From positions 224,001-288,000 of the forward strand of contig CAVXKA010000001.1 of the NCBI GenBank assembly GCA_963762255.1: a stretch of 64,000 nucleotides of DNA. Reading direction: 5' to 3'. How positions within the stretch are numbered: position 1 is the first letter of the stretch; each line of letters starts with the position of its first letter. The translations under genes were made by a program, and so were the position numbers. Positions 18,021 to 63,998 of the stretch are shown piece after piece. The stretch comes from Candidatus Eiseniibacteriota bacterium. Lineage in GTDB: Bacteria > Eisenbacteria > RBG-16-71-46 > JABDJR01. The notes beneath the pieces are model-generated. The model was not told the DNA's origin. It did no database searches and saw nothing but the letters and a program-made list of their open reading frames with translations.

Positions 18021-18044
18021 TGGGGGTCCGATGAAGATGGCCCG

Positions 18045-20384: not shown

Positions 20385-20471
20385 AACCCGGAATATACAT
20401 TTAACTGATTGAACATCAATTGTTTAGGCCACTCTGCGTCGGGGCGGCTCGGCCTGCAGGACCCCACGGCA

Positions 20472-20488
20472 CGTCACACATGGTGACG
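20472..20488. promoter_or_regulatory. Candidate enhancer (UAS) palindrome CGTCAC-N5-GTGACG
   Basis: Perfect inverted repeat about 90-100 bp upstream of the -24 element, with AT-rich IHF-like tracts nearby. Confidence 0.4.
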
Positions 20489-20560
20489 CGGTCCGGCATC
20501 AAAGCCCTCAACTTATTGACTGGAAAAGAATTATAACCGCAGGACCCGACCCGCTCTCTG

Positions 20561-22195: not shown

Positions 22196-22251
22196 GTCAT
22201 GGATTATGACATACGAATCATGATCCGTGACGAGGGGCAACCGAGGGCGAC

Positions 22252-33573: not shown

Positions 33574-33646
33574 TTCGAACCTCCCCCAACCGGGTCGGAC
33601 ATCCGTCCGACGGATGCGAAGCCTGCGGGTCGCTAGTGTGGCGTGG

Positions 33647-33660
33647 TTTGACCGGTCCAA
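33647..33660. promoter_or_regulatory. LacI-type operator 1 (TTTGACCGGTCCAA)
   Basis: Near-palindrome with central CG, matching sites at 46186 and 47347; downstream of the predicted promoter. Confidence 0.75.
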
Positions 33661-36838: not shown

Positions 36839-36845
36839 TCCCTTC

Positions 36846-39633: not shown

Positions 39634-39671
39634 GCCCTGTCCCTCTTCCCGGTCCGCGCGGGACCGGTGGG

Positions 39672-40073
39672 TCAATCGACAATCAAGAGCGAGTTGAAAC
39701 CGCCGTATCCGTCGTCCTTGCGCTGGGGATTGTTGGGATCTTCCTTCCAGTTGTTCTCGTCGACGACGAACTTGTACTCGTAGCGTCCCGGCGGGAGGTG
39801 TTCGCGCCGTTCCCAGATGCCATCCCCATCCGGATCTTCCATCTTGCCCACCTGGTAGGTGCCGGTCTGCGCCTGGCCGCCGAGCCAGTTGTTCTCGGGC
39901 CAGTTGCCGGCGAGCTGAACCACACGGGCCGCCGGCGCCTGAAAGCGGAACAGTACGGTCCCGTCCGATTGACGGGTGGGAGGCGGCAGCCGCTTCTTGA
40001 TGAAGTTGAGGCCGCAGCCGGTCTGTCCCGCCGCCAGGGCGATCAGGATCAGACCGAGAACGAGCTTGCGCAT
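39672..40073 (-). CDS. Small CBM48 lipoprotein
   Basis: Lipobox QTGC; FRFQAP.A..VQLAG, DGDGIW..LPPGRYEYKFVVD..W..DPNNP..DGYGGFNS. Confidence 0.85.
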   Translation of the reverse strand: MRKLVLGLILIALAAGQTGCGLNFIKKRLPPPTRQSDGTVLFRFQAPAARVVQLAGNWPENNWLGGQAQTGTYQVGKMEDPDGDGIWERREHLPPGRYEYKFVVDENNWKEDPNNPQRKDDGYGGFNSLLIVD

Positions 40074-40090
40074 GAAAGATCACCTCTCCA

Positions 40091-42271: not shown

Positions 42272-43857
42272 CAGAAGGTCCCCTTCAAAGTGAGACGGAC
42301 CAGATCCTTGTTGTCGGCGCTTCCCTCGAGGTTTCCCTCGTAGACGGGGTTGCTTCCGCCGCCGATCCAGAACGGACCGTAGGCCAGGAACAGCTCCAGG
42401 TTGGGGCGGGGCCGGTACTGAAGCTCGCTGAAGAGCCCCTTCCTCACCCGGGCGGGGTCGTTGCCGAACGTGAAACGGTTGTACATCTTGACCGTGCTGC
42501 TGATGTTCACCGAGGTTTCGAACGAACCGAGTTCCTTCTGGAAGACGGTGCTGAGATCCCGGATCCGGAACTGCAAGCGCATCCAGGCCAACTTGTTCTC
42601 GACCTGCATCTCGGCGAAGACGTCGTCGTTGTCGGTGACCTGCTTGATCGTGGTGTTTCCGTCGTTCTGCCAGTCACGGGTGGTGCGCTTGCGGTAGAAC
42701 AGCTTGCTGGTGAACCCGTTCACGAACTCGACGTAGGCTTCGGAGTAGAACTCGGTGACATGCCGGCTCTGGTTCACGCGCTTGGTATAGGAGAGGTAGT
42801 TGTTCGAAAGCGTGATGGCCCGCCCCGGAACCAGGTACCAGGTGTTGACGTAGTAGCCGTTCTCGTCGCTGTTGCCGTCGCCGAGCTGGTTGCGGAACTG
42901 GGGCCCGTAGTACCAGCAACTGGGGGCGACGTTGAGATACCCGACCCGATAGTCCCCCACCCGTAGAGACCGGATCTCCGCTTTCACCACCGCGTCGTCG
43001 GGAAGCCCGTCCTCGGGGTGGCGGAGGCTGAACTTCGAGACGTCCATCGCGTCGCTGCGGTAGGGGGTGCCGACCGTGCGCTGCTGGCCTTCCGCATACT
43101 CGAGCGAGAAATCGATGTTGCTCCACGTGTAGCGCAGGTCGCCGGCCCAGACTTCGGTGACCGAAGCCTGATCCACCCCCGATCGCTTCACCGTGTTCTT
43201 GTGGTTCCAGGTGACGCCGCTACGGAGCTTGCCGCCGAAGAACTCGCGCCGGAGTCGGCCGATGTAGGCGTCGTCGGTGGCGGTCGGCTTGTCGGGAAGA
43301 GAACCGTTGGAGGGATTGCTCTGGGAAGAAAAGTCGCTCGCGATCAGGTTGATGTAGGTGGAGCCCTTGACCCCCAACATGGAATCGCGCGACCAGAGGT
43401 TAAGCCGCACGCCTTGCGCGTTGCCGCCGTCGTTGGAGGATCCCCCCTGGACGACCTGGATGAGGTGGTTGTCCACCCAGAAACGATCCTGGCGGCTGAA
43501 CAGGTAGGTCTCGATCCCCTTTCCGTTCACGTCCCGGTTGTAGCGCACGTGGGCTTCTCGGTACTGGAAGAGCGGTCTGCGGTTGCTGTTGCTCCCGGTG
43601 TTCCACTCCGCCTCGAACTTGGTGAATGCCTCCAGACCCGGGATCGGCTGGCTGAACAGCCGGAACTGCGTGTTGTTGAAGGTGTCGTTGCTGTTGCTGT
43701 CGAAGTCCCACTCGTAGCGGCGGTCCTGCTTTCGGACGTCGAGCTGGAAGACGTACTCGCCCTCAAGGCGGGTGAACGCCAGGACGGGGAGGGCCCCGGC
43801 CAGCAGGGCGGAGACGGCGAGCGCGGCAACGAGGAGGCGGGGCGAGCGCGGGGTCAT
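42271..43857 (-). CDS. Putative outer-membrane beta-barrel (porin-like) protein
   Basis: Signal peptide VLA; alternating aromatic/hydrophobic strands; terminal VRLTLKGTF; translationally coupled on both sides. Confidence 0.7.
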   Translation of the reverse strand: MTPRSPRLLVAALAVSALLAGALPVLAFTRLEGEYVFQLDVRKQDRRYEWDFDSNSNDTFNNTQFRLFSQPIPGLEAFTKFEAEWNTGSNSNRRPLFQYREAHVRYNRDVNGKGIETYLFSRQDRFWVDNHLIQVVQGGSSNDGGNAQGVRLNLWSRDSMLGVKGSTYINLIASDFSSQSNPSNGSLPDKPTATDDAYIGRLRREFFGGKLRSGVTWNHKNTVKRSGVDQASVTEVWAGDLRYTWSNIDFSLEYAEGQQRTVGTPYRSDAMDVSKFSLRHPEDGLPDDAVVKAEIRSLRVGDYRVGYLNVAPSCWYYGPQFRNQLGDGNSDENGYYVNTWYLVPGRAITLSNNYLSYTKRVNQSRHVTEFYSEAYVEFVNGFTSKLFYRKRTTRDWQNDGNTTIKQVTDNDDVFAEMQVENKLAWMRLQFRIRDLSTVFQKELGSFETSVNISSTVKMYNRFTFGNDPARVRKGLFSELQYRPRPNLELFLAYGPFWIGGGSNPVYEGNLEGSADNKDLVRLTLKGTF

Positions 43858-44732
43858 CGGCGGGCCCCCCTCTCGGGAAGACTCAGACGGAGCGATGCCC
43901 GGTAGGTGTTGCCCAGCATCGCGTGAGTGAGGAACGCAGTGTCGACTTCCCAACGCGTTCCCTTGACGCCGATGCCGCCGGCGAATTCCTCGTCGTAGAT
44001 CCCGGCGCGGACGGCGAAAACATCGTAGAACCAGATCTCCCCCGCATAGTTCCACGTGGGATGATCGCCGAGGTCGGACCGGCTGCACATGATCGTCGAT
44101 TCCGGACGCCAGCGATAGGACGCCGACAGCTCCACCCCGCCGGGAACCTTGTCTCCCCCGCTGTCCCCGATGAAGTTGAACTCCGGCTCGCCGAGATTTC
44201 GCAGCACGGCGCCGAATCGCCAGTTCGTCCGTTCTTGCCACAGGAGTCCGAGATCCCCGGTGAACTTGGTCTTGGATCCGAAATCGCGGTCGGGCCCACC
44301 CGCGTGACTGTCGAAGGATACGGCGGCGAGCTTACCGGTGGCGCCGAGGTGAACGGCCCGGTTGTTGTCGCGATATACCCAGCGCCCGTAGGAGAGACCG
44401 ATCAGATCCTCGGACACCACCCCATCCAGAGCCAGTCGGTGCCAGGATAGAGCCGTTCCCCCTCCGGCGAAGGGGAGCCCGGCGACCACGGACCCCGAGG
44501 TGAGATCCTCGACCATATAAGGACGCGAGTAGGTGAATAGACCCTGGGGCTGAGCGAGGACCGACAGCGCTGCGGGATTCCAGTGAGCGGCGGAAACGTC
44601 CTCGACGGCAGCGCCGAAGCTCCCGGCCAAGGCAAGTCCCCGCGCATCCACGTCAACACGTTCGAAGTAGGCACCGGCCGGAGCCGCGAGAAGAAGCACG
44701 GCTAGAAGCGCAAGCGGCAGCGCGCGCGTCAT
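43854..44732 (-). CDS. PorV/PorP(SprF)-like (FadL superfamily) beta-barrel
   Basis: Signal peptide; hallmark ARGLALAGSFGAAVEDVSAAHWNPAAL; AVRAG..AGGIG..VDTAF..H..LGNTYRASL. Confidence 0.75.
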   Translation of the reverse strand: MTRALPLALLAVLLLAAPAGAYFERVDVDARGLALAGSFGAAVEDVSAAHWNPAALSVLAQPQGLFTYSRPYMVEDLTSGSVVAGLPFAGGGTALSWHRLALDGVVSEDLIGLSYGRWVYRDNNRAVHLGATGKLAAVSFDSHAGGPDRDFGSKTKFTGDLGLLWQERTNWRFGAVLRNLGEPEFNFIGDSGGDKVPGGVELSASYRWRPESTIMCSRSDLGDHPTWNYAGEIWFYDVFAVRAGIYDEEFAGGIGVKGTRWEVDTAFLTHAMLGNTYRASLRLSLPERGARR

Positions 44733-44772
44733 CTCATCGCCCTCCCGCCGTTGGAACGATCCGGCGCCCGCA

Positions 44773-46131
44773 TCACCGGACCACCGCGATGCCGCGCCGG
44801 GCCTGGTCCTGGTCGGGCTCCAGGACGATCTGAAGGACGTAGATGCCGGCCTTGAGCAGCATCCCGTCGTCGTCGCGTCCGTCGAAGACGTTGGCCACAT
44901 GGGGTTCCGGAGCCTCCAGCTCGGCGGGCGTGAAGGCGTAGCTGTCATAGATCGTCCGCACGCGCTCGCCGTTCATATCGAAAACCCGCGCGGTGAACTT
45001 GATGCGCCGGGTGCGCCGCAGGTTCTCGTCGGTGATCCGCGGCGTCACGGTGAACCGGAATCCAAGGACATCGCCGAGCTCGGGAGCGATCGCCTTGGGC
45101 ACCGCCGTGAACTGATCGATCTGCAGGGCTTGCCCACGCACCGGCGGCGGCACGAAGAAGTAGCTCTCGACGTAGGCGGCATACTCCTCGGGAGTCTGCT
45201 GCGCGGAGGGCACCCGAACCGGAACGCCGAAATCGGCCACATGGTCCGGCGTGGCTCCCCCCGCAGCATTCACACGGTCGAGGGGGATGCGCACGAAGTT
45301 GTCCAGCACCACCGGGACCGCCGAGTCGACTTGCGTACCGCTGATGTTGTCGGGAGCGGTGTCGGGCCCGCCCCCGCCGTCGCCGCCGGTCGTGACCCAC
45401 GCGGCGAGCCGGATCTCCGTGACATCCGTGGGCATGACATAGACCGAGTCGCCGTAGTCGGCGCTGTACTCCCATGTCCCCTTGCCGAGGAAGATCGTAT
45501 CCCAGGGGATCGCCGCCTCCATGGCCCGGTTGGGAAGATCGCCGTTGAAGTTGGCGACGGTGAGGAAGCTCTCGGTAGCGACCTGGCTGTCCCGATTGGG
45601 CCCGGTGTAAGTCCAGAGCTGGGGAACGGTGTTGCGGTCCCAGGTGGCAAGGAAGACCTCGGGATTGAATCCGTTGTCGAACGAGACCGAGCGCCGCCAC
45701 CCTCCTTCGATCGACGAGAACGAGGTCCACCCCGGGTTCTGGCGGTCGGGCAGGGTGTCGAAGAAGATCATGATGTTGTTGTTGAAGCTGTACCCCTCGA
45801 CCGCCACATAGAGAAAGCGTGCGTCCCACGTGATGCGAATGTTGTTGATGTCGTTGAAGCGGCCCCACTGGGAGTCGATCGCGCTCTCCTCGGGCGCCCC
45901 ATTCGGCGTGCGCTGAAAGATCGTCTCGTCGTCCAAATAATCCGCGGTCGACCCGTCGATGACGATTCGATCGGTGAGGTCGATCGCGGTGCCGGCGCGA
46001 GCGATCGGAGCGGACAAGAAGAGAGCGAGAATGACCACCGCCGGAAGTGCCCGGCAGGCGGGCAAACCGCCGCGCAGCGCACTCTGCGAGGCCGTTCGCA
46101 GCCAAGAGCGGAGGGACGAATGGAGGTTCAC
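44773..46131 (-). CDS. Secreted DOMON/CBM9-like protein with type-B-like C-terminal sorting domain
   Basis: Signal peptide ARA; IVIDG..DI..IRITWDARFLYVAV..MEAAIPW; CTD VFDMNGERVRT..FDGRDDDG..AGIYVL..IAVVR. Confidence 0.7.
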   Translation of the reverse strand: MNLHSSLRSWLRTASQSALRGGLPACRALPAVVILALFLSAPIARAGTAIDLTDRIVIDGSTADYLDDETIFQRTPNGAPEESAIDSQWGRFNDINNIRITWDARFLYVAVEGYSFNNNIMIFFDTLPDRQNPGWTSFSSIEGGWRRSVSFDNGFNPEVFLATWDRNTVPQLWTYTGPNRDSQVATESFLTVANFNGDLPNRAMEAAIPWDTIFLGKGTWEYSADYGDSVYVMPTDVTEIRLAAWVTTGGDGGGGPDTAPDNISGTQVDSAVPVVLDNFVRIPLDRVNAAGGATPDHVADFGVPVRVPSAQQTPEEYAAYVESYFFVPPPVRGQALQIDQFTAVPKAIAPELGDVLGFRFTVTPRITDENLRRTRRIKFTARVFDMNGERVRTIYDSYAFTPAELEAPEPHVANVFDGRDDDGMLLKAGIYVLQIVLEPDQDQARRGIAVVR

Positions 46132-46185
46132 GCGTTCAAGCCTTCCGAGTGAGGGCGAGCCTGATGCGGAGAGGATAGGGTCCCG

Positions 46186-46199
46186 TTGGACCGCTCCAA
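46186..46199. promoter_or_regulatory. LacI-type operator 2 (TTGGACCGCTCCAA)
   Basis: Palindrome immediately downstream of the -10 box, over the predicted TSS. Confidence 0.8.
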
Positions 46200-46228
46200 A
46201 AACTAGTGGAGAGGTCGCCGGGTGTCAA
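46200..46228 (-). promoter_or_regulatory. Sigma-70 promoter TTGACA-17-TAGTTT for the glucan operon
   Basis: Perfect -35 at 46228-46223, 17-bp spacer, -10 at 46205-46200. Confidence 0.75.
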
Positions 46229-46268
46229 GCCATCGGGGACATCGGAGGAGGATCCGTGCGCCGACCGG

Positions 46269-47309
46269 TCAGGGTTGGGACACGGGCGGTGGGCCGCTTG
46301 ACTCGCGCGCCACCAACCGGGTGGGAACGACCCGCTCCACCGGTTCCGGATCCCGGAGTTCGAGGATCTCGAGCAGGAGCTGGGTGGCCATGCGGCCGAT
46401 GTCGTAGATGGGCTGCGAGAGGGTCGTCAGACGGGGGCGCACGTAGGTGGTCAGCCGGATGTCGTCCGCTCCAACGACCGTCAAGTCCTCTGGGACGTGC
46501 AGTCCGAACTCCTCCTGCGCCACGCGGAGCGCTCCCAGGGCCATCATGTCGTTGGCCGCCATCAGCGCCGTCGGGCGAGGGCGACGTACGAGAAGCGCCC
46601 GCGCCGCCTCGGCCCCACTCGATTCTGAAAAATTTCCCCAAAGACGAAGGTCGTCCTCCATGGCGATTCCCGCTTCGGCGAGGCCGTCCAGAAATCCGAG
46701 GCTGCGGTCCTGCCCCACCGTCGTGTTCTCGAGCCCGCCGATGAACGCGATGCGGCGGTGCCCGAGCGAGACGAGGTGACCGACCATCTCGCGGGCCCCG
46801 GACCGGTTGTCCGCGTAGACCGCGCTCGCTCCCGGCATGCGGGTGTTGACCAGCACCAGCGGCGTCCGCAATTCGATCAACTCGCGGACGTAGGCATCCT
46901 CCTTGATCGTGCCGAGCAGCAGCATGCCGTCGGCGGCGCCCTGCCGAAGCAGGCGGCGATGGGTCGCGTGTTCGAGGAAGCGCGCGTTGGCCATTTCGAT
47001 CACGAGTCGATACCCGGCCTCGGAGAGCACGTCGGAAATGCCGCTGATGGCCTCGGCGAAATAGACGTCGGCGAGCACGTGCGATCCGGTGGCGGGCAGG
47101 ATGACCGCCGCGGCGTTGGCGCGCCGGCGCGCGAGGCCGCGGGCCATGGTGTTGGGCTGGTAGCCCGCTGTCTCGATCACTTCGAGCACGCGGTCCCGGG
47201 TCACGGCGGTGATGCGCGGGTCGCCGTTGATGACGAGCGACACCGTCGAGCGCGAGACGCCGGCCAGGCGCGCGATGTCCCGAATGGTGGGCTTCGCAGT
47301 TTCGTGCAC
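46269..47309 (-). CDS. LacI-family transcriptional repressor
   Basis: TIRDIARLAGVSRSTVSLVIN, YQPNTMARGL, LGHRRIAFI, NDMMALG, VPEDLTVVGADD, LTTLSQP; GTG start after a GGAGAGG RBS. Confidence 0.94.
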   Translation of the reverse strand: MHETAKPTIRDIARLAGVSRSTVSLVINGDPRITAVTRDRVLEVIETAGYQPNTMARGLARRRANAAAVILPATGSHVLADVYFAEAISGISDVLSEAGYRLVIEMANARFLEHATHRRLLRQGAADGMLLLGTIKEDAYVRELIELRTPLVLVNTRMPGASAVYADNRSGAREMVGHLVSLGHRRIAFIGGLENTTVGQDRSLGFLDGLAEAGIAMEDDLRLWGNFSESSGAEAARALLVRRPRPTALMAANDMMALGALRVAQEEFGLHVPEDLTVVGADDIRLTTYVRPRLTTLSQPIYDIGRMATQLLLEILELRDPEPVERVVPTRLVARESSGPPPVSQP

Positions 47310-47346
47310 GAGAATCCTCTCCGAAAAACCGCGGGGATTCGTTGCG

Positions 47347-47365
47347 TTGGATCGGTCCAATTATA
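47347..47365 (-). promoter_or_regulatory. LacI-type operator 3 (TTGGATCGGTCCAA) abutting a TATAAT -10 box: autoregulation
   Basis: Minus strand reads TATAATTGGACCGATCCAA, upstream of lacI. Confidence 0.75.
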
Positions 47366-50404: not shown

Positions 50405-50758
50405 TCAGTGAAAACTCGTCCCCGAGGTCCGCATGTAGTCCTCGATCGCCATGCAGGCCCGGCTCTCCTGGTCCTCGAAGACCAGCACTCGGCCCCAGTA
50501 GCCGTCGATGAGTCGCAGCAATCCCTCGTGCCCGGGCACCTGGAGAGACTGCAGCCACGCTTCGATGCCTTCAGCTTCGAGAATCTTCTGCACGGTGAGC
50601 GCGGCGATCTCGTCGGGAGCCAGGAACACCGTCTTCGTGCGGAGTTCCCGATCGCGGATATCCGGCGGGGGCTCGTGATGCGGGGCGACCTTCACCCCGC
50701 AGTCCGGGCAGAACTCCTCGCAGATTTCTCCCATCCCGCAGTTCGGGCAGGTATGCAT
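50405..50758 (-). CDS. Zinc-ribbon + DUF2007-like (putative signal-transducing) protein
   Basis: CPNC..FCPDCG; EIAALTVQKILEAEGIEA..RVLV.ED; GGAGG RBS. Confidence 0.65.
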   Translation of the reverse strand: MHTCPNCGMGEICEEFCPDCGVKVAPHHEPPPDIRDRELRTKTVFLAPDEIAALTVQKILEAEGIEAWLQSLQVPGHEGLLRLIDGYWGRVLVFEDQESRACMAIEDYMRTSGTSFH

Positions 50759-50823: not shown

Positions 50824-50864
50824 AAAAAATGGGCGCCCCTCGCCGCGAAGGCGAAGGGCGCCCA
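50824..50864 (-). terminator. Intrinsic terminator after the OmpA-fusion gene
   Basis: About 15-bp GC stem followed by six U on the minus strand. Confidence 0.8.
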
Positions 50865-50898: not shown

Positions 50899-52518
50899 TT
50901 ACTTGATGACCACGAACTCGATGCGGCGGTTCCGCGCGCGACCGAGGTCGGTGTCGTTGCTGTCGATCGGCCGAGACTCGCCGAAGCCGCGCGTCTGCAG
51001 GCGGCTTGCGTCGATTCCGCGGTTCACCAGGTAGGTCTTCACCGTTTCACCCCGGCGCTCGGACAGCTTGAGATTCGACTCGTCGCTTCCGATGTTGTCG
51101 GTGTGACCCTGGATCTCGACACGGATCTTCGGGTTCTCCTTCATGATCCGGACCACTTCCTCGAGCACGGGGATAGGATCGGCCCCGCTGATCTCGGCGG
51201 TCGCGAACTTGAAGTTGATGTAGGCCAACGGGAAGTAGATCGGGGCCTCGTCCGGGCATCCGTCCGAGTCCTCGAACCCGTTCACCGTCTCCGCCTCGTT
51301 CGGGCACTTGTCGTTGACGTCAAGGATGCCGTCACCGTCGTTGTCCAGATCCGGGCAGCCATCCTGATCCTCGAACCCGTCCATGTCCTCGGCCTGATCC
51401 GGACACTGGTCGTTGACATCGAGGATGCCGTCCCCGTCGTTATCGAAATCGGGGCAGCCGTCGGTGTCCTGATAGCCGTCGAAGTCCTCGGGCTGATCGG
51501 GGCACTGATCGCTGACGTCCGGGATGCCGTCCTGGTCACGGTCCTTCATCCCGCCCGACCGATACAGGTCGCGGCGCTCGCCGAAGTCCAGACCGAGCGA
51601 GAACCGGTGGTTCTCGTCCATGAACTTCTGGGGCTCCACCACGTACGCGTAGTCGAACTTGAAGAACTTGACTCCGAGGCCGAAGCCGCCGGCGAAGTTC
51701 CCATCGTCCACGCCCAGACGGAGAGCACCCGAGAAGTCCTCACTCAGAGGCACCCAGTACTCCGCGCCGCCGTGGAAACGGTAGTTCTCGTCGTCGCGCG
51801 TCTTCTCGACATCCGCACCCAACGTCAGGCCGTCGACCGGCGACAGCGCCGCGCCGAAGCGCAGGTTGGACGGGACGTCGTTGACGTCGCCCTGGTCCTG
51901 GTCTCCGACCTTGGTGAACAGATCCTGAACGACGATGCCCAAGCGGGCATACTCGGTCAGTGCGAACTGCGCACCGAGATCGAAACCGATACCGTTGGCG
52001 CCGTCATCGCTGACGCTGCTGGCACCGATGCCTTGGGTCACCAGCTTGCCGGTGATTCCCAAGTTGACCGGACCCGCAGCGGTGGCCGCGGAGAGCATGA
52101 TCGCGTTGTCGTTGAAGTCGTAGAGACCCTCAGCGGCTCCGGTGCTCCCGGTTTGACGGATGTCGGTCATGTTGGCGTTCACCCAGCCGAGTCCGAGAGC
52201 GAATCTCTCCCAGCCGTAGGCAGCGCCAACGTAGTTGTGATTGCGATCCACGGTCATCCCGCCGGTAAACATCCCGGACAGGCTGAATCCGCGGAGCAAA
52301 GAAAGGCCGGCCGGATTCCAGTAACCGGCTGCCACATCGTTGGCAACCGCGCTTCCGGTACCGCCCATGCCATAGTATCTAGCCCCAATCCCGGCCCGCA
52401 AGAACGGAGCCAAGTGGTTGCTCTGCTCCTCGACAGCGTAAGACGCCGCGGGCGCCACTGCCGTCAGGAGGAGGCCGATCAGGGCAACGGCCCATGCGCC
52501 TCGGTTCCTACGAAACAT
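50899..52518 (-). CDS. PorV-like beta-barrel + TSP3 Ca-binding repeats + OmpA_C peptidoglycan-binding domain
   Basis: FLRAGIGARYYGMGG..ANDVAAGYWNPAGL; FDYAY..NHRFSL; 3x D.D.DGI.D..D.CP; IQGHTDNIG..NLKLSERR..GFGESRP..NRRIEF. Confidence 0.85.
   Translation of the reverse strand: MFRRNRGAWAVALIGLLLTAVAPAASYAVEEQSNHLAPFLRAGIGARYYGMGGTGSAVANDVAAGYWNPAGLSLLRGFSLSGMFTGGMTVDRNHNYVGAAYGWERFALGLGWVNANMTDIRQTGSTGAAEGLYDFNDNAIMLSAATAAGPVNLGITGKLVTQGIGASSVSDDGANGIGFDLGAQFALTEYARLGIVVQDLFTKVGDQDQGDVNDVPSNLRFGAALSPVDGLTLGADVEKTRDDENYRFHGGAEYWVPLSEDFSGALRLGVDDGNFAGGFGLGVKFFKFDYAYVVEPQKFMDENHRFSLGLDFGERRDLYRSGGMKDRDQDGIPDVSDQCPDQPEDFDGYQDTDGCPDFDNDGDGILDVNDQCPDQAEDMDGFEDQDGCPDLDNDGDGILDVNDKCPNEAETVNGFEDSDGCPDEAPIYFPLAYINFKFATAEISGADPIPVLEEVVRIMKENPKIRVEIQGHTDNIGSDESNLKLSERRGETVKTYLVNRGIDASRLQTRGFGESRPIDSNDTDLGRARNRRIEFVVIK
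51247..51543 (-). repeat. Three 99-bp (33-aa) TSP3-type intragenic repeats
   Basis: DxDxDGIxDVxDxCPxxxExxxGxxDxDGCPD x3. Confidence 0.8.
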
Positions 52519-52580
52519 CTCCTTTACCTCCTTGCTCATCCCTGCAGCGCTTCCAGTCTGAGTGCCGCACAGCGAGAGAG

Positions 52581-52608
52581 CCGTGGGGCCGGAAATCCGG
52601 CCCCACGG
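52581..52608 (-). terminator. Strong hairpin between the giant gene and the barrel gene (no U tract)
   Basis: CCGTGGGGCCGG-aaat-CCGGCCCCACGG perfect 12-bp stem. Confidence 0.55.
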
Positions 52609-52615
52609 TCCTCGA

Positions 52616-55600
52616 TTACCTCTCGTTCCAGATCGCGAGCTTCATGACGCGCGGCTCCTGGCGCGAACCGTCGTCCACAACGATGCGGACGATGTACATG
52701 CCGTTGCCGAGCGCCCGGCCGTCATCGGTCTGGCCGCCCCACTCGATCATCACAGGACCCACGCCCTTCGTGCCCTTGAAGGCCGTCGCGACGTAGTCAC
52801 CCGCCCAGTCGTAGATGGTGACTTCGACGTCCGCCGGCTTGTTCAGCACGAAGGAAATCGTGGCGTTGCCCACGAGCGGGTTGTACGGGTTCGGGATCAC
52901 CTTCGCATCCATCACCTGGATGACGCCGCCGCCCACCGTGAAGCTGCAGATGGTGCTGAACTTGTTGCCCAGCTTGTCCTCTCCGCTTAGCTGCACGAAG
53001 TACGTGCCCGTTTCCAGGAGATTGCCCTCGTTGGTGATCGCGAACGAGACCCCGTTCTCAGTCACGTCCATGTTCTGGATGTTGTTCTCGCCCACAACCG
53101 CGCCGGTCGGGCCGGTGACCCGGACCTGGATGCTGTTGACGTCGATCCCAACACCCTCGTCCGTGAAGGACGCGGAGAACACGTACCGGTTGGTCTGGCC
53201 GACCGGATCGGGGGTCGTGCCATCGCAGACCACGCCAGGCGACGAGGGGAAGACCTCCGGCGCCACGGTGTCGACGATGAAGCGCTGCTCCACGAACCGG
53301 CTGCCCGCGTTGAACACGTTGTCCATCGGACCGGTCAGGTAGACCACGTAGACGGGCGTTTCCGAGCCGACCTCGTAGGTCTTGGTCACCGGCGCACCGA
53401 TGCCCAGGAAGAACTTGATCAGATCGAGGATAGACGCGTCGTCCAGGTGGTACGCCAGCGGGTCGAGGACCAGACGGTGGGTGTAGAGAGTGATCTCCAT
53501 CACCGTGCCGTTCTCGATCGTCCGGCCGCCGGTCAGCACCGCCAACGGAACGTTCAGCGTGTCTTCGGGCGAGTACTCGCTCAGCGAAGGCGTCACGTAG
53601 GGCTCCAGCGCGTTCGCGGTACCCGTGTAGATCAACGTCCGGGTCTCGATGTCGTCCGGATGACCGAGGTTCTCACCACCGGCCTCGTTGATCGTCCACA
53701 CGTCGTACTTGAACCCGTCGTCGCCGAACATGAGCTTGCTGTCATCGCACAGGATGCCGTACAGGTTGAAGATATCGCCGTAGCGCTCGCACAGAGCCTC
53801 GGCGGTCTCCTCCTCACAGCTATCGTCCTTCCAGTCATGGGCGATGGCGATGTCGTCGATACGGTCTTCCTTGAAGAGGATGCCCGAGCCGCCGTCGAAG
53901 AGACGGACGCCGAGGATGTCCTCTTCCAGGTTGATGTAGCCGGCGACATTGCTCAGCTTCGGACTGCCCACGAATCCGCCGTGGAACTCCACGTAGGGAG
54001 CGGTCCGATCGACCCAGAACTCGTACGTGAAGTCGGCCCCGTAGACCGAGAACTCGTTCTCGTCCTGGAACTCGAAGCGGAGCGTGTGCATCCCTTCCTT
54101 CAGCGCTTCGTTGTTCGCGCAGCTGTGACGGTAGTCCCACGCGATGGTCTGGTTTTCGTTGGTCACGTAATCCCAGTCGAACTCCGAGCCGGGATACATG
54201 AACCAGTCACTGTACGAGCTGTACGCGAGCTTGTTGTCGATGTAGAGCTCGAACGAGTCGGTGTCGATCTCGTCGCTGGAGGTCCGGATCACGCCGCGCA
54301 GGATCGGATCCTGATCGGTGTAACCGTTCCACTCGGGCGACATCGAAACCTCGACCGGGGCCTTCTCGTCGGTGGCGACCACCGTCCAGACGGTACCCGA
54401 GATTTCCATCGTGTTGAAACGGATCACGTTGGCTTCGGTATCGACCTGGATGTGGTTCACGTCCGCACGAGTCCACTGGTCGCCGTCCCACCAGCGGACG
54501 GAGAGCTTGGATTCGTCGTACGAGCCGCCGGTGGTCTTGACCAGGTCGGACTCCTTGTAGCGGATCCACCCCTTCGCCTGCCAGCCGTTGTCCGTGTCAC
54601 GCGTTGTGACGTCCCAGTCGGACTTGTGCAGCGTGGACAGGTACGACGGACCGATGGCCTCGACGTACTTGTCCTGCCACTCCGGCGTGACCGGGCGATC
54701 GGTGCGCTTGATCAGGAACCCGCGCTGCGAAGTCACAGCACCGGCCGGGATCTCCATCGCGAAGTCGTCGGTCGGGTAGCCGTCGGCCGCGAGATACCCG
54801 CGCCCGTCGACACCGGCGACGCCGTTCGTGCCGCGATCCATGGTCGTCTGGTAGAAGTAGAGGTACATCATCTTCATCTCGGTCTTGGGCGCAGGGGCGT
54901 CGATCGACGTGCGCTTCTTGCTGGCCGAGACGTAGAGACCCACCTTGGCGCCTTCGGTCGGGTTGACACCCTCGAACGCGCCTTCCAGGGTCGGAATTTC
55001 ACCCACCCACACCTTGCTGTCGTCGATCTTGGTGTTCATCTCGGGAACGAACTCGTCGATCGCGCCCAAGCCGTCCTCGGCAACCATGACCACGAACGGA
55101 GCCAGGGTCGCGTCGGTGGTCGCAGCTTCGACCCGACCGCCGGTGCCCTCGATATCCGCGGCCGAGGTCAGGCCGTTCGTCTCGGGGGCCGGCAGGCTCC
55201 CACCACCGTTCCAGTAGCCACCGAGGTTCCCCGTCATGAAGAACTTCGGAGCCAGCAGGTAGCCGAGGTTGTCGACCGGCGTGAACACCGTGCCGCCGTT
55301 CTCCGTCCGGTCAACCCGGACCGTGAGGATCGGCGTGTTGGGCAGGTCGTAGAGCCCGCTGAAGATATTCGGATCACCGTCGGCCGGCGTAACGCCGCCC
55401 TGACCGATGATGCCACTCTTCATCGTCAGCGCACCCTCGTCGGCCTTGGCCGGGAGGGTGGGGAGCTCATCGCTGGCAACCGCGCGCAGCTCGAGGAGCT
55501 GGCCTGCGGTGAACGTCGAGGTGACGAGTTCCGAGAACCACAGATCCTGCGGCTTGAGCCAACCGCTAGGAGCGTTCGGTTGCACGTCCAGACCCTCGCC

Positions 55601-58600
55601 GGTATCCGTCGAGGTTCCGATGGTCGTCCACTCGGCGTCGTTCACCTTGCGGTACTGGAAGAAGACCGTAGAGGCCTCCTTCTCGCCGAAGGTGAGACCG
55701 TAGACGCGGTCGATGATGCCCTTGGTGATCAGATCCTTGAAGTGCGGGTTGAAGGCCGACACCTGAGCCAGCGGAACCGCCACGTTCTCCACCGTCACGA
55801 CGACGATGTTGTGGCTGTCGCCGCAGTTGGCCGCCGTGTCGGTGGCCCGTGCCACCAGCAGATAGTCGCCGTCGGCGAGGCCACTGGTGTTCCAGAGAAT
55901 GCCCCACAGCCCGAGCGTGGCATCGTAGCCGGCGGTCCCGAGGAGCCGCCACACAGGCGCGTTCTCCCCTGTCGGGACGCTGGCGAGGAAGAACTGGACC
56001 TCCTTGACGTCGGTCAGGTCCTTGCCGCCGGTGCCGGTGTTCGGGATGTTGGGTTCGTCGTCGTTCACGGTCGCGTAGATGCGGACCTGGTCGCCGGCGG
56101 ACACATCGGTGATCTGATCGTTGTCGATCGGATCGATCGTCGTGTCGACGGTCTTCAGGGCCACGTGCGTGATCTCGATGTTCGGGTCGACGTTGTCCAC
56201 CACGGTCTTCTTCGCGAGGACGTTCTTGGTGGTGTTGCCGGCCACGTCGGTGGCGACCAGGCGCCAGTCGACAAGTGCCCCCGTCGCACCGAACTCATCG
56301 AGCAGGTCGACCGTGCTGCTGAAGCGCGTCGTCTTCCCGTCGAACATGGTCATGGAGCCGAACGAGGTCCAGTTGAGGTCAACGTCCTCGTCCGCGGACC
56401 ACTTCCACTGCCAGCTCAGGCAGTTCTCCCAGGAGTTCTTGTACGCGACATCAGTGTCACTGCTGGTGGCGATAAGGTCGGCAACCCGCTTGTCGGGGCT
56501 GCAAACCACATCACCCACGTTCTCCGGCACCAGAACCTTGTTGTCGGTCGGGTTGACCGCCGCGAAGGCAGGACCGGTGCGGTCGATGATGATCCGCGTG
56601 ATCGCCGGGCTGGCATCGCTGTTGCCCGCGTCATCGGTAGCGATGGCGGCGAGTTCGTACGATCCGTCGGCGAGCGGGGCGGTGGCCCAGCTGTAGATGA
56701 CCCAGGTCTGGATGTTGTCCAGGTCCTTGAGCCAAACATCGGCGTTGATCATCGTCCACGTGCTGGTTCCGGCCTTCCGATACATGAACTTCACGTCCTG
56801 CGTATCGGTCGCGCCGTCCAGGATGCGGGCCCAGAGCTGGCTCACACCGTTCACGCGGATGTTGTCAGGATTCTCGATCAGCACGTTCTCGGCCACGTTG
56901 CAGTCCGCGCCCGAGTAATCACGCATGATGTGGGTGATGGTCGCCTTCGGGGCGATGGTGTCGACGAACTTCACCGGGGCGGTTCCGCCCGCCGTGAAGT
57001 GCTCCACCACGTCCGTCGTGTTGCAGACCAGATCGCCCACCTCGACCGAGATGTTGTAGGTCTCGTTCGGGATCAACGGCTCCCCGTTCATGTCCCGGTA
57101 CTCATTCGTGTTCCAGTGGAACGCGTAGGGCCGGGTGTAATCGGGGTTGTCGTTGGTCGGCGGGACGCCGAACTCCTCGTCGAGCGCGACCCACGAGCCG
57201 AACTCGTTCAGATCCGTCGCGAGCTTGTAGTAGTAGGTCACGTGCAGATCGTCGTTGACGAGCACGCTGCCGCCGCCGGTGGCCTCGATGAGGACGCCGT
57301 CAAGGGAGTTGCGCTCGACCTGAGTGACAACCGCACCCGTCTTCGGGTTCTTCAGCGCGATGGCCATCTTGGGGGCCGTGTTGTCCACGATGAGGTGGTA
57401 GATCGCATCGTTGATGCTGACCTCTTCGTTACCCCACACGTCCACCGAGCGGACACGGACCTGCACCGAGTTCCCGTCAAGCGCGTCGTTGTACCAGATG
57501 TAGGAGCCATCCGGGTACTGCGCGAGGGTGTTCCACTCAGCCGACCAGATCGGGCCGAGGTGCGTGCCGGCGGCGCCGGTCACACCAGAAGCCTGACCCA
57601 GGATGAGGTCGCCGCCGCAGTTCATGTAGCACGAGCCCTCGGCGATGAGGATCCACGGGCCGGTGACGTTCGGCTTGCTCGGATCAACCCGGCGTCCTTC
57701 GAAGAACACCCGGCCGCCGAACATCGAAGCGTCGCCCTGCGGCGTGGAGGCGTAGAGATAGATATCACGCGCCACCGTCCCCAGCGCCCTGGCTCCGGTC
57801 AGATCCTGGGCAAGGACGTTGTCGTCGATGCCCATCAGGTACATGGGCTGCTCCGAACCAGCAAGGCCCTGGATCGGTTCCGGCTTGGTGACCATCAGGT
57901 AATCCAGCGCAGTCCGCGGATAGGTCGCGCACTCGTCATCGCGACCACCAGCCACCGCGATCAGCTTCGTGTCCTGCGGAGGCGTGTGATCCTGAACGAT
58001 CACCGCATCGAAGGACACGATGCCTGAGCAGTTGCCGGCATTGTCCCGCGCCACCACCTCGATGGTGTAGACGCTGTCGGTCGACGTCGGCAGGTTGGCC
58101 GGGGTCACCCAGTCGATCTTCCAGAGGTCGTCTTCGCTGGTCGCGGTGCCCGCGTCGTCGAGCGTCCCGAGACCGATGATGTTCCGGTTGTCGTCGCCGT
58201 CGTAGTAAGCGAACTGGACGGCGTAGATGCCGGAGGACTGATCCTGGAAGTCCTGGTAGTCGATCGTCGGCCAGTTCCCGTAGCTGTACCAGAGACCGTC
58301 GTTGACACGCACGGCCAGCGGGACGGTGTCACCGCCCGCGACGTGCACCGGCTCCGTGCCAGCGCCCGCCTCGAACTGACGATCGCCCGCGTACAGGTAG
58401 GTCAGGTCGGGGCTGTACGGATCGACCCGCAGCAGGATGCCCTCGTTGGCTTCGTTGGTGTTGCAGGCGTAGTCCACCGCGCGTACCCGGAAACGGTACT
58501 CCTTGGCGGGCAAATCTCCGTAGATAACCGCCTGTCCGCGTGGCATGAGGTCGGACATCGTGTCAGCCAGAGCTTCCAGGCTCGGGATAACGAGCTGCCA

Positions 58601-61600
58601 CTTGCCGTCGGGATTCAGGTTGTTCCCGACCGCATCGCGATACTGGAAGTAGCCGAAGTCGCCAGCAAGGCTGATCCAGGTCGGGTTCTCCGGGTCGGAG
58701 AAGTCGTCCAGGAACTCGAGCCACATCTGGTTCACGACCTCGGTGTCGTTCGCCGGATCCGTCACCGACGCGTAGAAGGTGATCGCCGGCGAATGCTCGG
58801 GGCAGATCGCCGTCTCGGCGGGGAGGAGGTCGGCGCGAATGATGTCGTGATCCTCGAGCGTCGTGCCGCCCACGCCCTCAGGACCCACGCGCGTGAGCAT
58901 GAAGTCAGGCGCGATGTGATCGATGATGACGGGGAAGCTCGGAACGTCCTCGGGGACGCCGTCGCCATTCGTGTCGCTCTGGACGTTACCGTCCGCGTCG
59001 GTCGCATAGGCCCGCACGTAGTACGTGCCGTCCGCGATCGGATCGGTGTCCCAAACGATATCCCACTGGGCCAGCGCCGGCCCCGGCAGGACGGTGAAGT
59101 TATAGTCGACGTCGATCGTCGTCCAGGGACCCGCACTGCTGGTCGCGTACTGGACGATGACCGTAGCCACGTCGAATCCGTTCCAGCCGGTGGCGACACC
59201 GAAGATGCCGATCTCGCCGCTCAGGGCTAGCGTCGGATCGAACGGCTTCTTGCAGTGGTCGTCGATGAAGCTGGCGTCGGGCCAGCACTCGGCGCAGAAG
59301 CGCGCGATCATCGCGACCGGACCGGTGGTGTCGTTCAACAGGATGTTGACGTTGCAGTCGAGCGCCGCGTCCTCCGCCTGATTGTTGTCGACCATGTCGA
59401 CCGCACGGGCCCTGATGCTGACGTAGAAGTCGCTCGCCAGGTTGGCGGCCAGGAAGCCGGTATCCCACGAGCAGTGATACATCCCGTCTTCGCCGACCAC
59501 TTCAACCCACGGGTCGTCGTCGTCGTTCAGAGGCGTGCAGTCGATCGGTGTCCAACTGGACATGGAATCCCATTCCATGCCGCCATGGAGGCTGTACTCG
59601 AACTGGACGTAGGCCACGTCAGTGTCGGTCGTGCTGGCAGTCAGCTCGATCACGTCGCCGATCGGGAAGATCGTTCCGTCCGTCGGCTCCGTGATGCACG
59701 CCTGCGGGATGTCCGCGTCCACCGTGATCTCGGCGCACACCTCGGGCGACTGTGCCCGCGGGTGACCGCACGAGTAACCCCAGTTGAAGCAATCGTCGAT
59801 CGCTACGACCCGGAGCTTGTAGGTGTAGACGGACTCGGCGGCGTCGTCGGTGATGCCGTCGAGGTTGTTATCGATCCCGTCCGTGAGCGGGTTCATCCAG
59901 CCGGGCAGCGAGAAGGTTCCGCCCCACCCGCCGTTCAGCGTCCAGATGAAGATCTTCCACGAGTCAAACCCGTCCTCGAAGATCGTCCGCCAGCGCGTCT
60001 CGGTGTCGTCCACCGAGGCCTGCAGGATAATCCCCGTGAGCTTGACGATGTCGCCGGTGGCCGGGACAGGGTCGCGGATCTCCACGTTGACCTGCACGTC
60101 GCCTTCGGGGGCAACCATGGTCTCGCTCAGCCAGATGCTGTTGACAATCGGCCGGGTCGGGTCGTAAGTGACCCAGATCTGACCGAGAACGCCCGAGACC
60201 CCGCCCGACACGAGGTTCGTGGTCGAGTTGCCGGCCTCGTCGACGACCGTGATCAGAACCTGCTTCAGCATATTGACGCCGAACAGGGCCGCCGGGTCGT
60301 CGGTGCTGTACACCCACACGTCCGACGGGAGCACGATCGTGGAAGAGCTGAAGCGCGGATCCGGAATGTTATCGACCTGGTTGTCACCAATCATGTCCAC
60401 GCTGAAGGAGTAGCCGTAGCTACCACCCAGCGGCAGGACTGCGTTGTACTGATAGATCCCGTCACCCAGGTTTGTCATCTCGACGTTGTAAGCCAAGATG
60501 CCGGGGATCGTGATGGTGACGTTTTCGACCGAGTCGGGATTGATGGCCTGGAAGCTCCAGCTATTCGCCGTCACGTTGGCCAGGTCATCGATGTAGAACG
60601 TGATCGGGATCGTGATCAGCGAGTCGTCTTCCGCCGTGTAGTGCGTGAAGTCGATCGCGGTTCCGCCCGCGATATTCATGAACACGCGGACGACGTCGTC
60701 CTGAGTGGTCACGAAGAACTGGTGCTCGATCCCGGTCAGCTTCGACTTGCAGGACCCGAAATCACCGCTAATGTCGCTGCCCCCGTAGGTCTCGCAGAGG
60801 GGGTTCCCGGGGTAGTTCGGGTTGAGGTGGCAGGAGTCGAGACCATAGACCGTGAACGTCGGCGCATCCGTGTCGTTGATCGGGAGCGCGAAGCCCTCGG
60901 TCAGACAGAGCTCGGAGCACGGACGGGAGCTGATGAACACCGAGTCCCAGACGCGGTAGGCCACTGCGATGATGTCGTAGTGGGTCACGTCGGAGTACGT
61001 CGGCTCCGGGACCAAGCCGTTGAAGGTGTCGGCATCCCAGGCCACCGAGTACGGGTACTCGTTGTCGCCGGCACCGATCGGCTTACAGTCCGTGACGTTG
61101 TAGTCGATCGTGACCACGTCGTCCACCGCCATGCCGCTCCCGAAAGTGATCGTGCTGGTTCCGGTGATCGTGTAGTCGAGCTTGGTCGGCGCGACCAGCG
61201 CGGCGAAGTCCGCCGGGCTGTACCACGTGGCGGCGACACCGCCCACCCAGACCGTCTCACTACCGTGCTCACCGACGGCGCCCGCCGCCCAGATCGAGTG
61301 ATTGGTCGTGGCGCTGTACGGATAGACCGTCGCAACGTCCAGGATCTCACCCTCGATCCGCTCAGCGTAGTAGAACTGCACCGTGATGCCGGTGTAGTCG
61401 CCGGCCACGTCCACGTCGGCCCTGATCACCACTTCCTCACCGGGGGTGAGGCTGTCGGCGTCGACACCGATTCTCGTGACGGACGTCACATGTGCTGTCT
61501 GGCGATTCAGGCTGAACCGATAGGGGTTCCCGAAGATCGGCGTGATGTTCCCGTTGACGTCGGTCGCCCGCGGGAAGAACTGGTACACGCCGTCCGTCAG

Positions 61601-63998
61601 GCCCGCGATGTTCCAAGCCGGGGCGTCGCCGGGCGGGTTCGGACCCGCGGCGCCGTCCAGGTCACCGAAGATGTAGGGATAGGTGGTATCCACCATGCCC
61701 GGCACGACCATCCACGCCGTCGTATCGTACGGCGCGGCGCCGCCGGCCTTGCGGTACCAGATCTCCACCTTCTCGATGTTCGTGTTGTCTTCGGCGGTAA
61801 CCAGCATCGAAAGCGTGGTCGGCTCGAGGCAGTAGGTCTCGAGGTTGCCACGGAGAACCGTGTTCGCCTCGAGCGTGTCCACCTCGGCAGTGACCACCAT
61901 CACGATGTCGGTCTCGGGACCCACGTTTTCGCCGAGAACCACGCACGCCTTGCAGGCGTCGGGATCGATGTCGAAGTTTCCGTTCGTGTCGTACGCGACA
62001 GCCCGGAAGTTCGTCTCGGTGTCGGTCGTGATCGCGAGATCCCCGTACAGGAACTTCGCCGTCCATCCGTCCACCCTCACCATGTCGGTGGAGATGTAGA
62101 CCCAGGTCGAGTCGACGCCGTTCCGCCAGTAATAGAACCGAACGGAATCAACGTCAGCGTCACTCGCTCCGCCCATAGGCTCGGCGATCAGGGTCAGGAA
62201 GTCCTGCGGGAAGATGTGCAGGCAAGGCGGACCGGTGGGCAGAACCACCGGATCGCCGCCAGCCGCCGGGATGTAGGACACCACGCAGAACTGCGGAGCC
62301 TCACTGTCGATGCAGTACTGCTCGAACCAGATGCGCGTGTTGCTGTCCGGAATCCCGTCACGCGGCGAAACGTCGTCATCCGTGTTGCCGAGAATGTCGG
62401 TCGCCACGGCACGGACGATGTAGCAGCCGCTGAGGCCGGTCACATCCCAATCCATGGCCCACAGGTCGAGATCGTCGTCCGAACCGTCGGCCGGGTTGTC
62501 CTTGAGGATCCAATCCGCCAGATCGAACGCGCTGTTGTTGTTCACGTCGCCGATGTACTCGTCGGCCGCGAAGTTCGTCAGCACCGTCCCGGGGGACATC
62601 CCGGCCTGGGTGACGACGACGATCACATCGGTGGCCGGCTGGAACGTGCCGTTGTTGTTCACGTCACGCACGATCGGGTCGACGGGGTTGTACCCGTCGC
62701 CGTCGACGTCCCAGTACCGGTAGTACTTGCCACCGATGGCCGCATCGAGTGCCCGGGCAGGGGCGTTCTTCAATACGCGCTCGGCACCCGTGCCGGCGCG
62801 GAGGATGACGTCGCCCTTGTAGCCGCGCTTGTCGGGAACCAGACCGTCCACGCCGATCGTGATCCAGGGGCCGCCGTCCGGCTGGCCGTCGGAGTTGGCG
62901 TCCGCGGTGTACTGGAACTCGACCTTGTTCACGGCGAGGTCGTGGATGTAGACGTTCGCGAACAGGCTGTCCACGTTGCCGGCCACGTTCACGACGGGCT
63001 GGATGTAGGCGCGCAGGCCGAGTATCGTCCAGCGTCGCGGTGGCCGTGCAGGTCATGTCCGGCATGCCGTTGCCTTCGATGTCGTAGGCGATGGCGCGCA
63101 GATCGTAGCTACCCGCCACGAAGCCGCGCGTGTCCCACGTCACCGTGGCCACCCACTCATCCGGACCGACGCTGATGATCGGGTGCTTGACGCCCGTCGG
63201 ATCGTCGAGGACGTCGGGAATGCCGTCGCCGCTCGTATCCGCGGGCACGCCGGTGATGGACACCAGCGGGAACCAGGTCAACGTACCCACCGGGCGGTAC
63301 TCGAACTCGACGCGGACCACGTCGTTGGTGGTCGGGTCGCCGTCGCCGTCGGTGAAGCACGCCGAGATGTCGACCGCGCTCTCCACGGGGACGAACGCGC
63401 CGTCAGACGGGTCGTAGTCGGACCCGATCTGGCAGAGGCACGCCATCGGCGGAGTGCAGTCGACGATGATGAGTTGCAGTTCGTAGCAGGTCGCGTCGAG
63501 CACGCCCGGCGAGACGAAGAGGCTGTCGCAAAGCGACTGCGGCTCCACGTTGCCGAAGTTGTCGGTCGCGATCGTGCGGAAGTAGAGCGTGTCCTGGGCC
63601 GCAGGCGGGTCGTTCGTCATCGGGCCGGCGGTGGTCCAGTCCCAGGTGAACGGCGCGCTGACGTCGGTCCCGAGGGCCGCCCAAGCCGTGCCGGTCCAGT
63701 ACTGGAATTCCACCGTGGCGACGTCGTTCACGTCACCCGCGATGTCGGCTTCCAGCGTGTAGGTTGCCGCATCCAGGAACCCGTCGTCGTCGTTGTCCGT
63801 CGAGATGACGTCGCAGACCTGGGTGCCGGCGGCATCCGGGTTGATGTCTGCCACGCCGTCAAACGGCGGAGGAGGGATGGTCGCGATGGGCGCCACGCTG
63901 TCGATCGAGAAACGCAGCGGCACCGCCCAGTTGGCGTTGCCCTGGTAGGCGTGGTCGAAGGCCACCGCGCGGATCCGGTACTCGGCTCCGTCGGCGAG
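52616..63998 (-). CDS. Giant (>3,790 aa) acidic Ig-repeat surface protein with FlgD-Ig/T9SS-like CTD; 5' end outside the window; one +1 frameshift near 63023
   Basis: The 3458-aa ORF joins the upstream ORF if one base is removed (..TLDD/LGLRAYIQPVVNV..); repeated V.F.Y..W..IG / W(D/N)T..L.DG.Y..RA.A.D..GN; CTD VIPNPYNP..IYDWAGD.V..WGGQTDDG..GNGMYIVRI. Confidence 0.85.

Follow-up and report, generated by a model that had tools for sequence, protein, structure and literature searches.

A giant sorting-domain protein gene and a predicted PorV-family barrel with a TSP3-OmpA_C tail form a conserved gene pair in a Candidatus Eisenbacteria-like bacterium

A 64 kb window (the whole stretch analysed; 64,000 nucleotides, about 65% G+C) of contig CAVXKA010000001.1 from a Candidatus Eiseniibacteriota bacterium encodes, on its reverse strand, a giant surface protein that ends in a type A-like C-terminal sorting domain (CTD) of the T9SS (type IX secretion system) and, directly downstream, a 546-residue protein, hereafter the fusion, in which a predicted PorV/PorQ-like outer-membrane barrel is joined to TSP3 repeats and an OmpA_C-like domain. 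The two genes are a real, conserved two-gene unit. We propose that they are the cognate cargo and anchor of a type IX-like secretion pathway in this Candidatus Eisenbacteria-like bacterium, a reading to which we give an even chance of being correct because family assignments, a conserved cargo-then-barrel gene order and published wall-anchored complexes of PorE, PorP and cargo all point to it.

The fusion gene (50899..52539, reverse strand) lies 76 nt downstream of the giant gene (spacer 52540..52615), or 97 nt if translation starts at Met8 of the window protein, as it does in the homologues. Behind a signal peptide, residues 44-319 (51583..52410) match the NCBIfam model of the PorV/PorQ family, NF033709, with 100.3 bits (cutoff 90) over profile positions 4-326 of 326, and the orthologous barrels of three further loci described below (L001-L003) score 97.4-107.5 bits with the same model. 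On this profile evidence the barrel is assigned to the PorV/PorQ family. When the barrel alone was compared with all PDB sequences, the sole match was F. johnsoniae PorV (6h3i_F and six further entries, E 9.1e-5). PorV (LptO) is the T9SS shuttle for type A cargo, and its F. johnsoniae structures are 6h3i and 8gl6. The fusion thus shares its family with PorV, to which it adds a 230-residue TSP3-OmpA_C tail predicted to be periplasmic. Orthology to PorV proper was rejected, since the fusion falls far below the cutoff of 250 bits for the PorV equivalog NF033710, a model outside the 25 best of the 44 NCBIfam families for the fusion, the lowest listed of which scored 46.7 bits. The Pfam PorV model stayed below its cutoff (16.9 bits, cutoff 27), and the match to Toluene_X/FadL was likewise weak and sub-threshold.

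A preliminary description of this DNA had called the protein a PorV/PorP-like barrel with calcium-binding repeats and an OmpA_C domain. Its PorV/PorQ character, its TSP3 units and its OmpA_C domain were borne out by our analysis, whereas the PorP label was not: the Pfam families listed for the fusion at E ≤ 0.01 are OmpA, TSP_3, Toluene_X and PorV, with no match to PorP_SprF (PF11751) or OmpA_membrane, and membership in the PorP/SprF family was rejected. The same description had named an ordinary 8-strand OmpA barrel as the structure that would speak against it. This candidate was rejected too, as the N-terminal part spans about 275 residues, matches the PorV/PorQ family model end to end, finds PorV in the PDB and has no OmpA_membrane match. 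The earlier statement that the barrel is fused to its wall anchor also stands, the NF033709 and OmpA matches falling within the same 546-aa gene.

Structural comparison in the ESM Atlas was made with a stored homologue, P0038, and the neighbours reported here are those of P0038. In its Atlas model, 321 residues align to a PorV/UPF0164 cluster with a template modelling (TM) score of 0.82 by row and 0.53 by query. The PorV/PorQ fold is a 14-strand FadL-like β-barrel; a crude β-amphipathicity count on the barrel of the fusion gave 13 peaks in about 11 distinct segments, none of them between residues 60 and 150. In an outer-membrane barrel with an even number of strands the two termini face the periplasm, and the TSP3-OmpA_C tail should therefore be periplasmic as well, within reach of peptidoglycan.

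Residues 333-431 of this tail (51247..51543, reverse strand) comprise three tandem 33-residue units predicted to bind calcium, each with two Asp-rich TSP3-type motifs, one long and one short, and with a pair of cysteines, six in total; at the DNA level, Tandem Repeats Finder (TRF) detected 2.8 copies of 99 nt at 51251-51531. The Pfam TSP_3 match was below cutoff (23.4 bits, cutoff 25), and the Asp and Cys columns of the units are invariant or nearly so in 29 aligned fusion sequences, in which the barrel, the TSP3 region and the OmpA domain all have invariant columns. The units are followed by a predicted OmpA_C-like peptidoglycan-binding domain (residues 443-538; 50926..51213, reverse strand; PF00691 77.5 bits, cutoff 27.2), in which T480, D481, R496 and N537-R539 are invariant across the same alignment; the Asp and Arg residues are presumably the peptidoglycan contacts. 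In total, 42 PDB sequences matched the domain at E ≤ 1e-10 (best 5wtp_A, 9.9e-22), among them 6top, which the table calls "OmpA family protein" only and which we take to be PorE's C-terminal domain. The tail would bind both peptidoglycan and calcium. Membership in two families that share parts of it was rejected. The top-scoring NCBIfam match of the fusion is the TSP3-OmpA part of TraB (NF033763, 135.2 bits against a cutoff of 700, profile 323-498 of 522), and PorE (NF052230) reached 68.4 bits against a cutoff of 600, over the OmpA_C part only (residues 443-524). About 35 nt past the fusion stop codon, an intrinsic terminator (50824..50864, reverse strand) with a 15-bp stem containing 12 G-C pairs, a 5-nt loop and TTTTTT closes the two-gene unit, in agreement with the strong terminator noted earlier. 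Just past it, on the same strand, lies a gene for a DUF2007-like small Cys-rich protein (50405-50758).

The giant protein does end in a FlgD-Ig-like CTD, as first noticed from the letters of the window. The NCBIfam model of the T9SS type A sorting domain, TIGR04183, matched residues 3367-3451 of the 3458 in the window (52640..52894, reverse strand) with 29.5 bits (cutoff 23), and Pfam FlgD_ig matched residues 3376-3441 with 33.8 bits (cutoff 27). Six NCBIfam families were listed for the giant at E ≤ 0.01, none of them a type B model, and with TIGR04183 above its cutoff a type B assignment was rejected. In an alignment of 15 orthologous CTDs the PNP, NG.Y and D-G columns are invariant, and the K..(I/L)W ending is conserved. 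The giant therefore has a type A sorting-domain model above cutoff at its extreme C-terminus together with, as judged from its homologues, a signal peptide; the latter is visible only in full-length homologues because the N-terminus of the window copy lies outside the window. All five giant homologues inspected have signal-peptide-like N-termini.

The main part of the giant gene (frame B, 52616..63022 on the reverse strand, stop codon included) encodes an acidic surface protein with multiple immunoglobulin (Ig)-like domains, 10% of whose residues are Asp. Its frame is open from 63052 down to the stop codon at 52616-52618, with 3458 aa counted from a GTG at 62992, and a G+C content at third codon positions (GC3) of 0.88 indicates strong coding bias. 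Past about 63020, in the upstream direction, another frame carries the coding signal as far as the window end at 63998, and this upstream part (frame A, 63021..63998, reverse strand), which is cut by the window end, again encodes Ig-like repeats. The Ig-like domains recognised by Pfam are scattered (Big_13 37.0 bits, Big_3_3 33.3 bits, and Big_3_2), in addition to the terminal FlgD_ig; on the upstream part Big_7 reached 22.5 bits, below its cutoff of 24.1. No tandem repeats were found in the gene at the DNA level. The giant is thus an Ig-repeat surface protein, for which an adhesive role is presumed.

The C-terminal 499 residues of the giant have 13 homologues, 11 of 4917-5906 aa and two shorter (2373 and 3742 aa), so that the size of about 400 kDa given in the preliminary description holds for the in-window part only, the whole protein being about 5,100 aa in full-length homologues. 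To one of these, the 5124-aa homologue P0128, the last 499 residues are 92% identical, and the upstream piece is 84% identical to its residues 1339-1665; since the alignment begins at residue 1339, about 1,340 residues of the giant lie outside the window. P0128 is continuous across the junction of the two pieces (...TATATLDNVGLRAYIQP...). To remain in frame there, the window sequence has to shift by one base within 63019-63026 (reverse strand). This apparent +1 frame change between frames A and B reflects either an indel from sequencing or assembly or a genuine disruption. GC3 is 0.78-0.88 across both pieces, on either side of the change. A gene elsewhere in the window behaves in a similar way: the pyruvate dehydrogenase (PDH) E1 gene (7954-10692, forward strand) is split into a Transketolase_N part (7966-9075) and a part with PDH_E1_M and the C-terminal domains (9748-10692), and its best GC3 frame is 1 at first, 0 from near 8950 on and 1 again from near 9600. 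This double switch within the same window suggests assembly indel errors rather than gene decay.

The fusion is widely conserved. Among its best 120 relatives, identity ranges over 44-96% and almost every length is about 540 aa; an organism name was present for seven of them and was Candidatus Eisenbacteria in every case. NCBI names these seven "PorV/PorQ family protein" (6/7) or "OmpA family protein" (1/7), and the JGI names are OmpA-like proteins. A single scan of genome contigs, keyed on TSP3/OmpA motifs, yielded 79 loci, in which the barrel was then sought with local hmmsearch. Three of them, L001, L002 and L003, all from Eisenbacteria metagenome-assembled genomes, carry the fusion-type barrel. 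The other 76 match the fusion only from residues of about 228-345 onward, have unrelated N-termini and come from other phyla, mostly Myxococcota.

In all four fusion loci (the window and L001-L003), an orthologous giant CTD gene lies directly upstream on the same strand, in line with the expectation of the preliminary description that the fusion would be linked to such a gene in other genomes. The spacers of L001-L003 measure about 100-116 nt, and the same CTD ends all three giant open reading frames (ORFs), which are open to the locus edge with at least 3301, 2490 and 379 aa, respectively. Identity to the window giant is 27% over 1783 aa in L001, 36% over 2636 aa in L002 and 32% over 389 aa in L003. 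Beyond the pair the neighbours differ: the pair is followed by a DUF2007-like gene in the window, in L002 and in L003, and by riboflavin genes in L001 and L003. A tblastn search with the DUF2007-like protein matched the DNA downstream of the fusion gene in L002 (39% over 111 aa) and in L003 (40% over 50 aa) and found no such homologue in L001, where a prepilin-like gene comes after the fusion. In addition, four of the 13 giant homologues equal fusion homologues in the value for longest contig (2067058, 35892, 27125 and 152131), which is suggestive only. PorV-like barrels turned up in three other loci of the scan. In L059 the barrel is convergent to a CTD-bearing ORF, and in L027 and L071 no CTD match was found nearby; cargo-barrel pairing therefore gains no support from these loci outside Eisenbacteria.

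Domain make-up and family memberships, conservation of the fusion and its adjacency to the giant gene are direct observations, and from them the following course of events can be envisaged. The Sec signal peptide would first direct the giant, a protein of dozens of diverged Ig-like domains with a type A-like CTD, into the periplasm, and a translocon whose genes lie elsewhere would then carry it through the outer membrane. Outside the cell, its CTD would be captured by the PorV/PorQ-family barrel encoded immediately downstream. The tail of the fusion, in which three TSP3 units, braced by disulfides and binding calcium, would lead to an OmpA_C domain bound non-covalently to peptidoglycan, would then couple the long surface fibre mechanically, via the outer membrane, to the cell wall. 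With a peptidoglycan-bound tail, the barrel would be a fixed docking site and not a free shuttle. Binding of the CTD by the barrel, and retention of the cargo on it, is what we infer by analogy with the Bacteroidota systems.

The Bacteroidota background on SprB-SprF and PorE-PorP cited in the preliminary description is in print (PMC9143113 and PMC12618676). The gene for a type B cargo is followed directly by that of its cognate PorP/SprF shuttle; in five F. johnsoniae operons a PorE homologue is encoded as well, and a static wall-anchored complex has been proposed for these operons (PMC12618676). A PorE-PorP-PG1035 complex is described for P. gingivalis (PMC9143113). With PorE-PorP-PG1035, SprB-SprF and Fjoh_3952-3951-3950, the pair described here shares a large CTD surface protein encoded directly upstream of a barrel. 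It also has in common with the Bacteroidota PorE-PorP/SprF complexes an OmpA_C domain that ties the barrel to peptidoglycan in a static, wall-anchored complex, here predicted. It differs from them in that a PorV/PorQ barrel is combined with a type A-like CTD instead of PorP/SprF with type B, that OmpA_C is fused to the barrel via TSP3 units instead of residing on the separate lipoprotein PorE, whose TPR, β-propeller and CRD domains are absent from the fusion, and that the host is Candidatus Eisenbacteria-like and not a member of the Bacteroidota. The earlier analogy to SprB/SprF-PorP/PorE is accordingly apt as a working model and wrong as a family assignment, since the locus pairs PorV/PorQ with type A. 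From PorV itself the fusion differs also in its genetic linkage to one cargo, PorV being unlinked and serving all type A cargo. Myxococcus TraB and other TSP3-OmpA_C proteins share the TSP3 and OmpA_C tail with the fusion, whereas their N-terminal parts are unrelated.

The remainder of the window supplies further type IX-like components. Pfam was run at E ≤ 0.001 on 37 other ORFs. Type A sorting domains of the T9SS (TIGR04183) also end the products of 3504-6395 (forward strand, 31.5 bits) and 31147-33660 (reverse strand, 35.1 bits), the latter of which carries a choice-of-anchor X domain as well. A second pair of a cargo-like protein and a barrel lies within 37384-47360 (reverse strand), an apparent glycan-utilisation cluster. 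It starts with a LacI regulator (46269-47360), after which come a 452-aa protein (44773-46131) whose C-terminus resembles the giant CTD (hhalign 81%, E 1.2e-5) but lacks the PNP motif, a PorV-like barrel that stands alone (43854-44732) and matches the barrel of the fusion with an hhalign value of 97.3%, a 656-aa protein ending in Phe that is possibly an outer-membrane protein, and, at the end, proteins with CBM48 and CarboxypepD_reg domains; a sugar ABC transporter (33838-36886) follows the cluster. L002 too has a CTD-like protein paired with a PorV-like barrel (11624-13821). In total, CTD proteins of type A or similar to it number four in the window, and PorV-family barrels number two. The preliminary description had considered that the lineage may lack a canonical T9SS; such numbers within 64 kb argue that the organism makes use of a T9SS-type pathway. 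A regulatory cluster at 13884-22354 (reverse strand), comprising a GAF-SpoIIE phosphatase, a response regulator, a Cache/HAMP histidine kinase, a TolB-like PD40 propeller and a sigma-54 activator, has no evident link to the pair, and scans of the window for tRNAs and Rfam families found nothing.

Several points weigh against the cargo/anchor reading. Linkage beyond the window comprises only three independent loci, because the scan was keyed on TSP3/OmpA motifs. Neither the two genes, by Pfam and NCBIfam, nor the 37 other ORFs of this 64-kb window, by Pfam, match a T9SS translocon, motor or sortase family, the core set looked for being SprA/Sov, PorK/L/M/N or GldK/L/M/N, PorU and PorZ, and the pair can hence not be called "self-contained", the word used in the preliminary description. 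A dedicated anchor for a type A CTD is without experimental precedent, and the frame change in the giant gene, if real, would mean that the cargo is broken in this genome. Three more points fit a different view as well, which we hold to be unlikely: the fusion would be the lineage's general wall-tethered PorV-type component for all type A cargo, with the neighbouring giant being a major cargo or part of an inherited operon. Bacteroidota type A CTDs are recognised by PorV (PMC12618676) and share this one unlinked protein, their cargo being cleaved by PorU and attached to anionic lipopolysaccharide (A-LPS) (PMC12618676, PMC9143113). The type A CTD proteins of 3504-6395 and 31147-33660 have no barrel gene of their own adjoining them. 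The fusion, conserved across the phylum at 44-96%, exceeds the giant with its 27-36% in three loci, which would suit a housekeeping role too. A barrel tied to peptidoglycan, however, cannot diffuse as a shuttle would, and its score lies far below the PorV equivalog cutoff. Moreover, giant and fusion have stayed adjacent in 4/4 loci while other neighbours differ, and both the size of the barrel family (16,613 representatives, see below) and the second paralogue in the window point to specialised copies.

That the fusion is instead a generic envelope protein, an OmpA/Pal-like tether or a FadL-like channel without specific contact to the giant CTD, we regard as improbable. TSP3-OmpA_C tails do occur on many unrelated N-terminal parts, as in the 76 of 79 loci above, the best NCBIfam score of the fusion belongs to the TSP3-OmpA part of TraB, and the weak Toluene_X/FadL matches would agree with a channel. 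Such a protein would nevertheless not be expected in a position directly downstream of a CTD-bearing giant gene that is kept in 4/4 loci, its PorV/PorQ assignment is above a curated cutoff, and a second pairing of a CTD-like protein with a PorV-like barrel exists in the window and in L002. Least of all do we believe that the module is decaying in this genome, with the +1 frame change splitting the giant so that no full-length exported protein is made: P0128 reads through 63019-63026 and the downstream piece would be without a signal peptide, yet strong coding signal and high identity to P0128 persist on both sides of the shift, and the frame switches of the PDH E1 gene point to assembly indels.

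The cargo/anchor reading is also favoured by the wider family of the barrel, other members of which bear periplasmic modules of the PorE type. With a profile of the barrel only, 16,613 representative proteins were retrieved at E ≤ 1e-3, a number that drops to 301 at E ≤ 1e-30. Among the best 150 members, 97 are shorter than 398 aa, mostly stand-alone barrels of 285-350 aa with few fragments, and 53 have at least 398 aa. Of these long representatives, 51 were scanned with Pfam at E ≤ 1e-6, the other two (P0027 and P0092) being OmpA-bearing homologues of the fusion. C-terminal modules were OmpA in 12 of the 51 (one with three copies), TPR in seven, SH3_3 in two and CarboxypepD_reg in one; one further protein carried a penicillin-binding transpeptidase domain, two matched barrel families only, and 26 had no Pfam match. 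The domain types TPR, CRD and OmpA_C are those found in PorE (PMC9143113).

Among the Atlas neighbours of P0038 are three Bacteroidota clusters (146, 69 and 103 members; 544-562 aa) that combine PorP_SprF with TSP_3 and OmpA. These automatically named clusters have the same three-part plan and near-equal length and are its nearest feature neighbours (0.93-0.94), whereas their barrel belongs to a different family (PF11751) and their TM score to the P0038 model is only 0.44. OmpA-tailed barrels from Elusimicrobiota and Calditrichota neighbour P0038 as well, and the Atlas also contains a family of about 730 aa that joins DUF5723 to TSP3 and OmpA. Judging by clusters of this kind, the fusion of a T9SS-type barrel to a wall-binding tail is a recurrent design, of which the Eisenbacteria fusion is the PorV-family, TSP3-linked form.

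A broader generalisation is offered as a tentative one, with clearly less than an even chance of being true. Each type A-like CTD cargo of Eisenbacteria might have its private PorV-family barrel encoded downstream, and some of these barrels might have absorbed PorE-type modules (OmpA_C, TPR, CRD, SH3). The functions of PorV and PorE would then be united in one protein that holds a fibre of about 5,000 residues non-covalently and statically on the wall, with no need for a PorU/A-LPS step. This alternative and possibly older design would perhaps extend to other phyla.

The components of the locus are not new, because databases already name the protein "PorV/PorQ family". What appears undescribed is the arrangement and its conserved linkage to a cargo of about 5,000 aa. 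A literature search that did not cover subscription journals found neither a description of PorV-OmpA or PorP_SprF-TSP3-OmpA fusions nor a link of Eisenbacteria to T9SS or type IX secretion. Such fusions are unmentioned in passages of PMC12773672, and passages of PMC11495043, on Eisenbacteria and a secretion system, contain nothing on T9SS.

Attachment of T9SS cargo has been worked out almost entirely in Bacteroidota. From a candidate phylum about which little is known, the locus adds a third arrangement, in which a type A-like CTD is accompanied by what would be a private PorV-family barrel with a fused wall anchor. If the cargo/anchor reading is true, the pair would offer a minimal two-gene system for studying how a barrel holds a sorting domain, and a very long surface fibre would be load-coupled to peptidoglycan. 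It would further suggest that the division of labour between PorV, PorP and PorE is evolutionarily fluid, and the wider barrel family with its OmpA, TPR, SH3 and CRD tails suggests that this theme reaches well past the locus described here.

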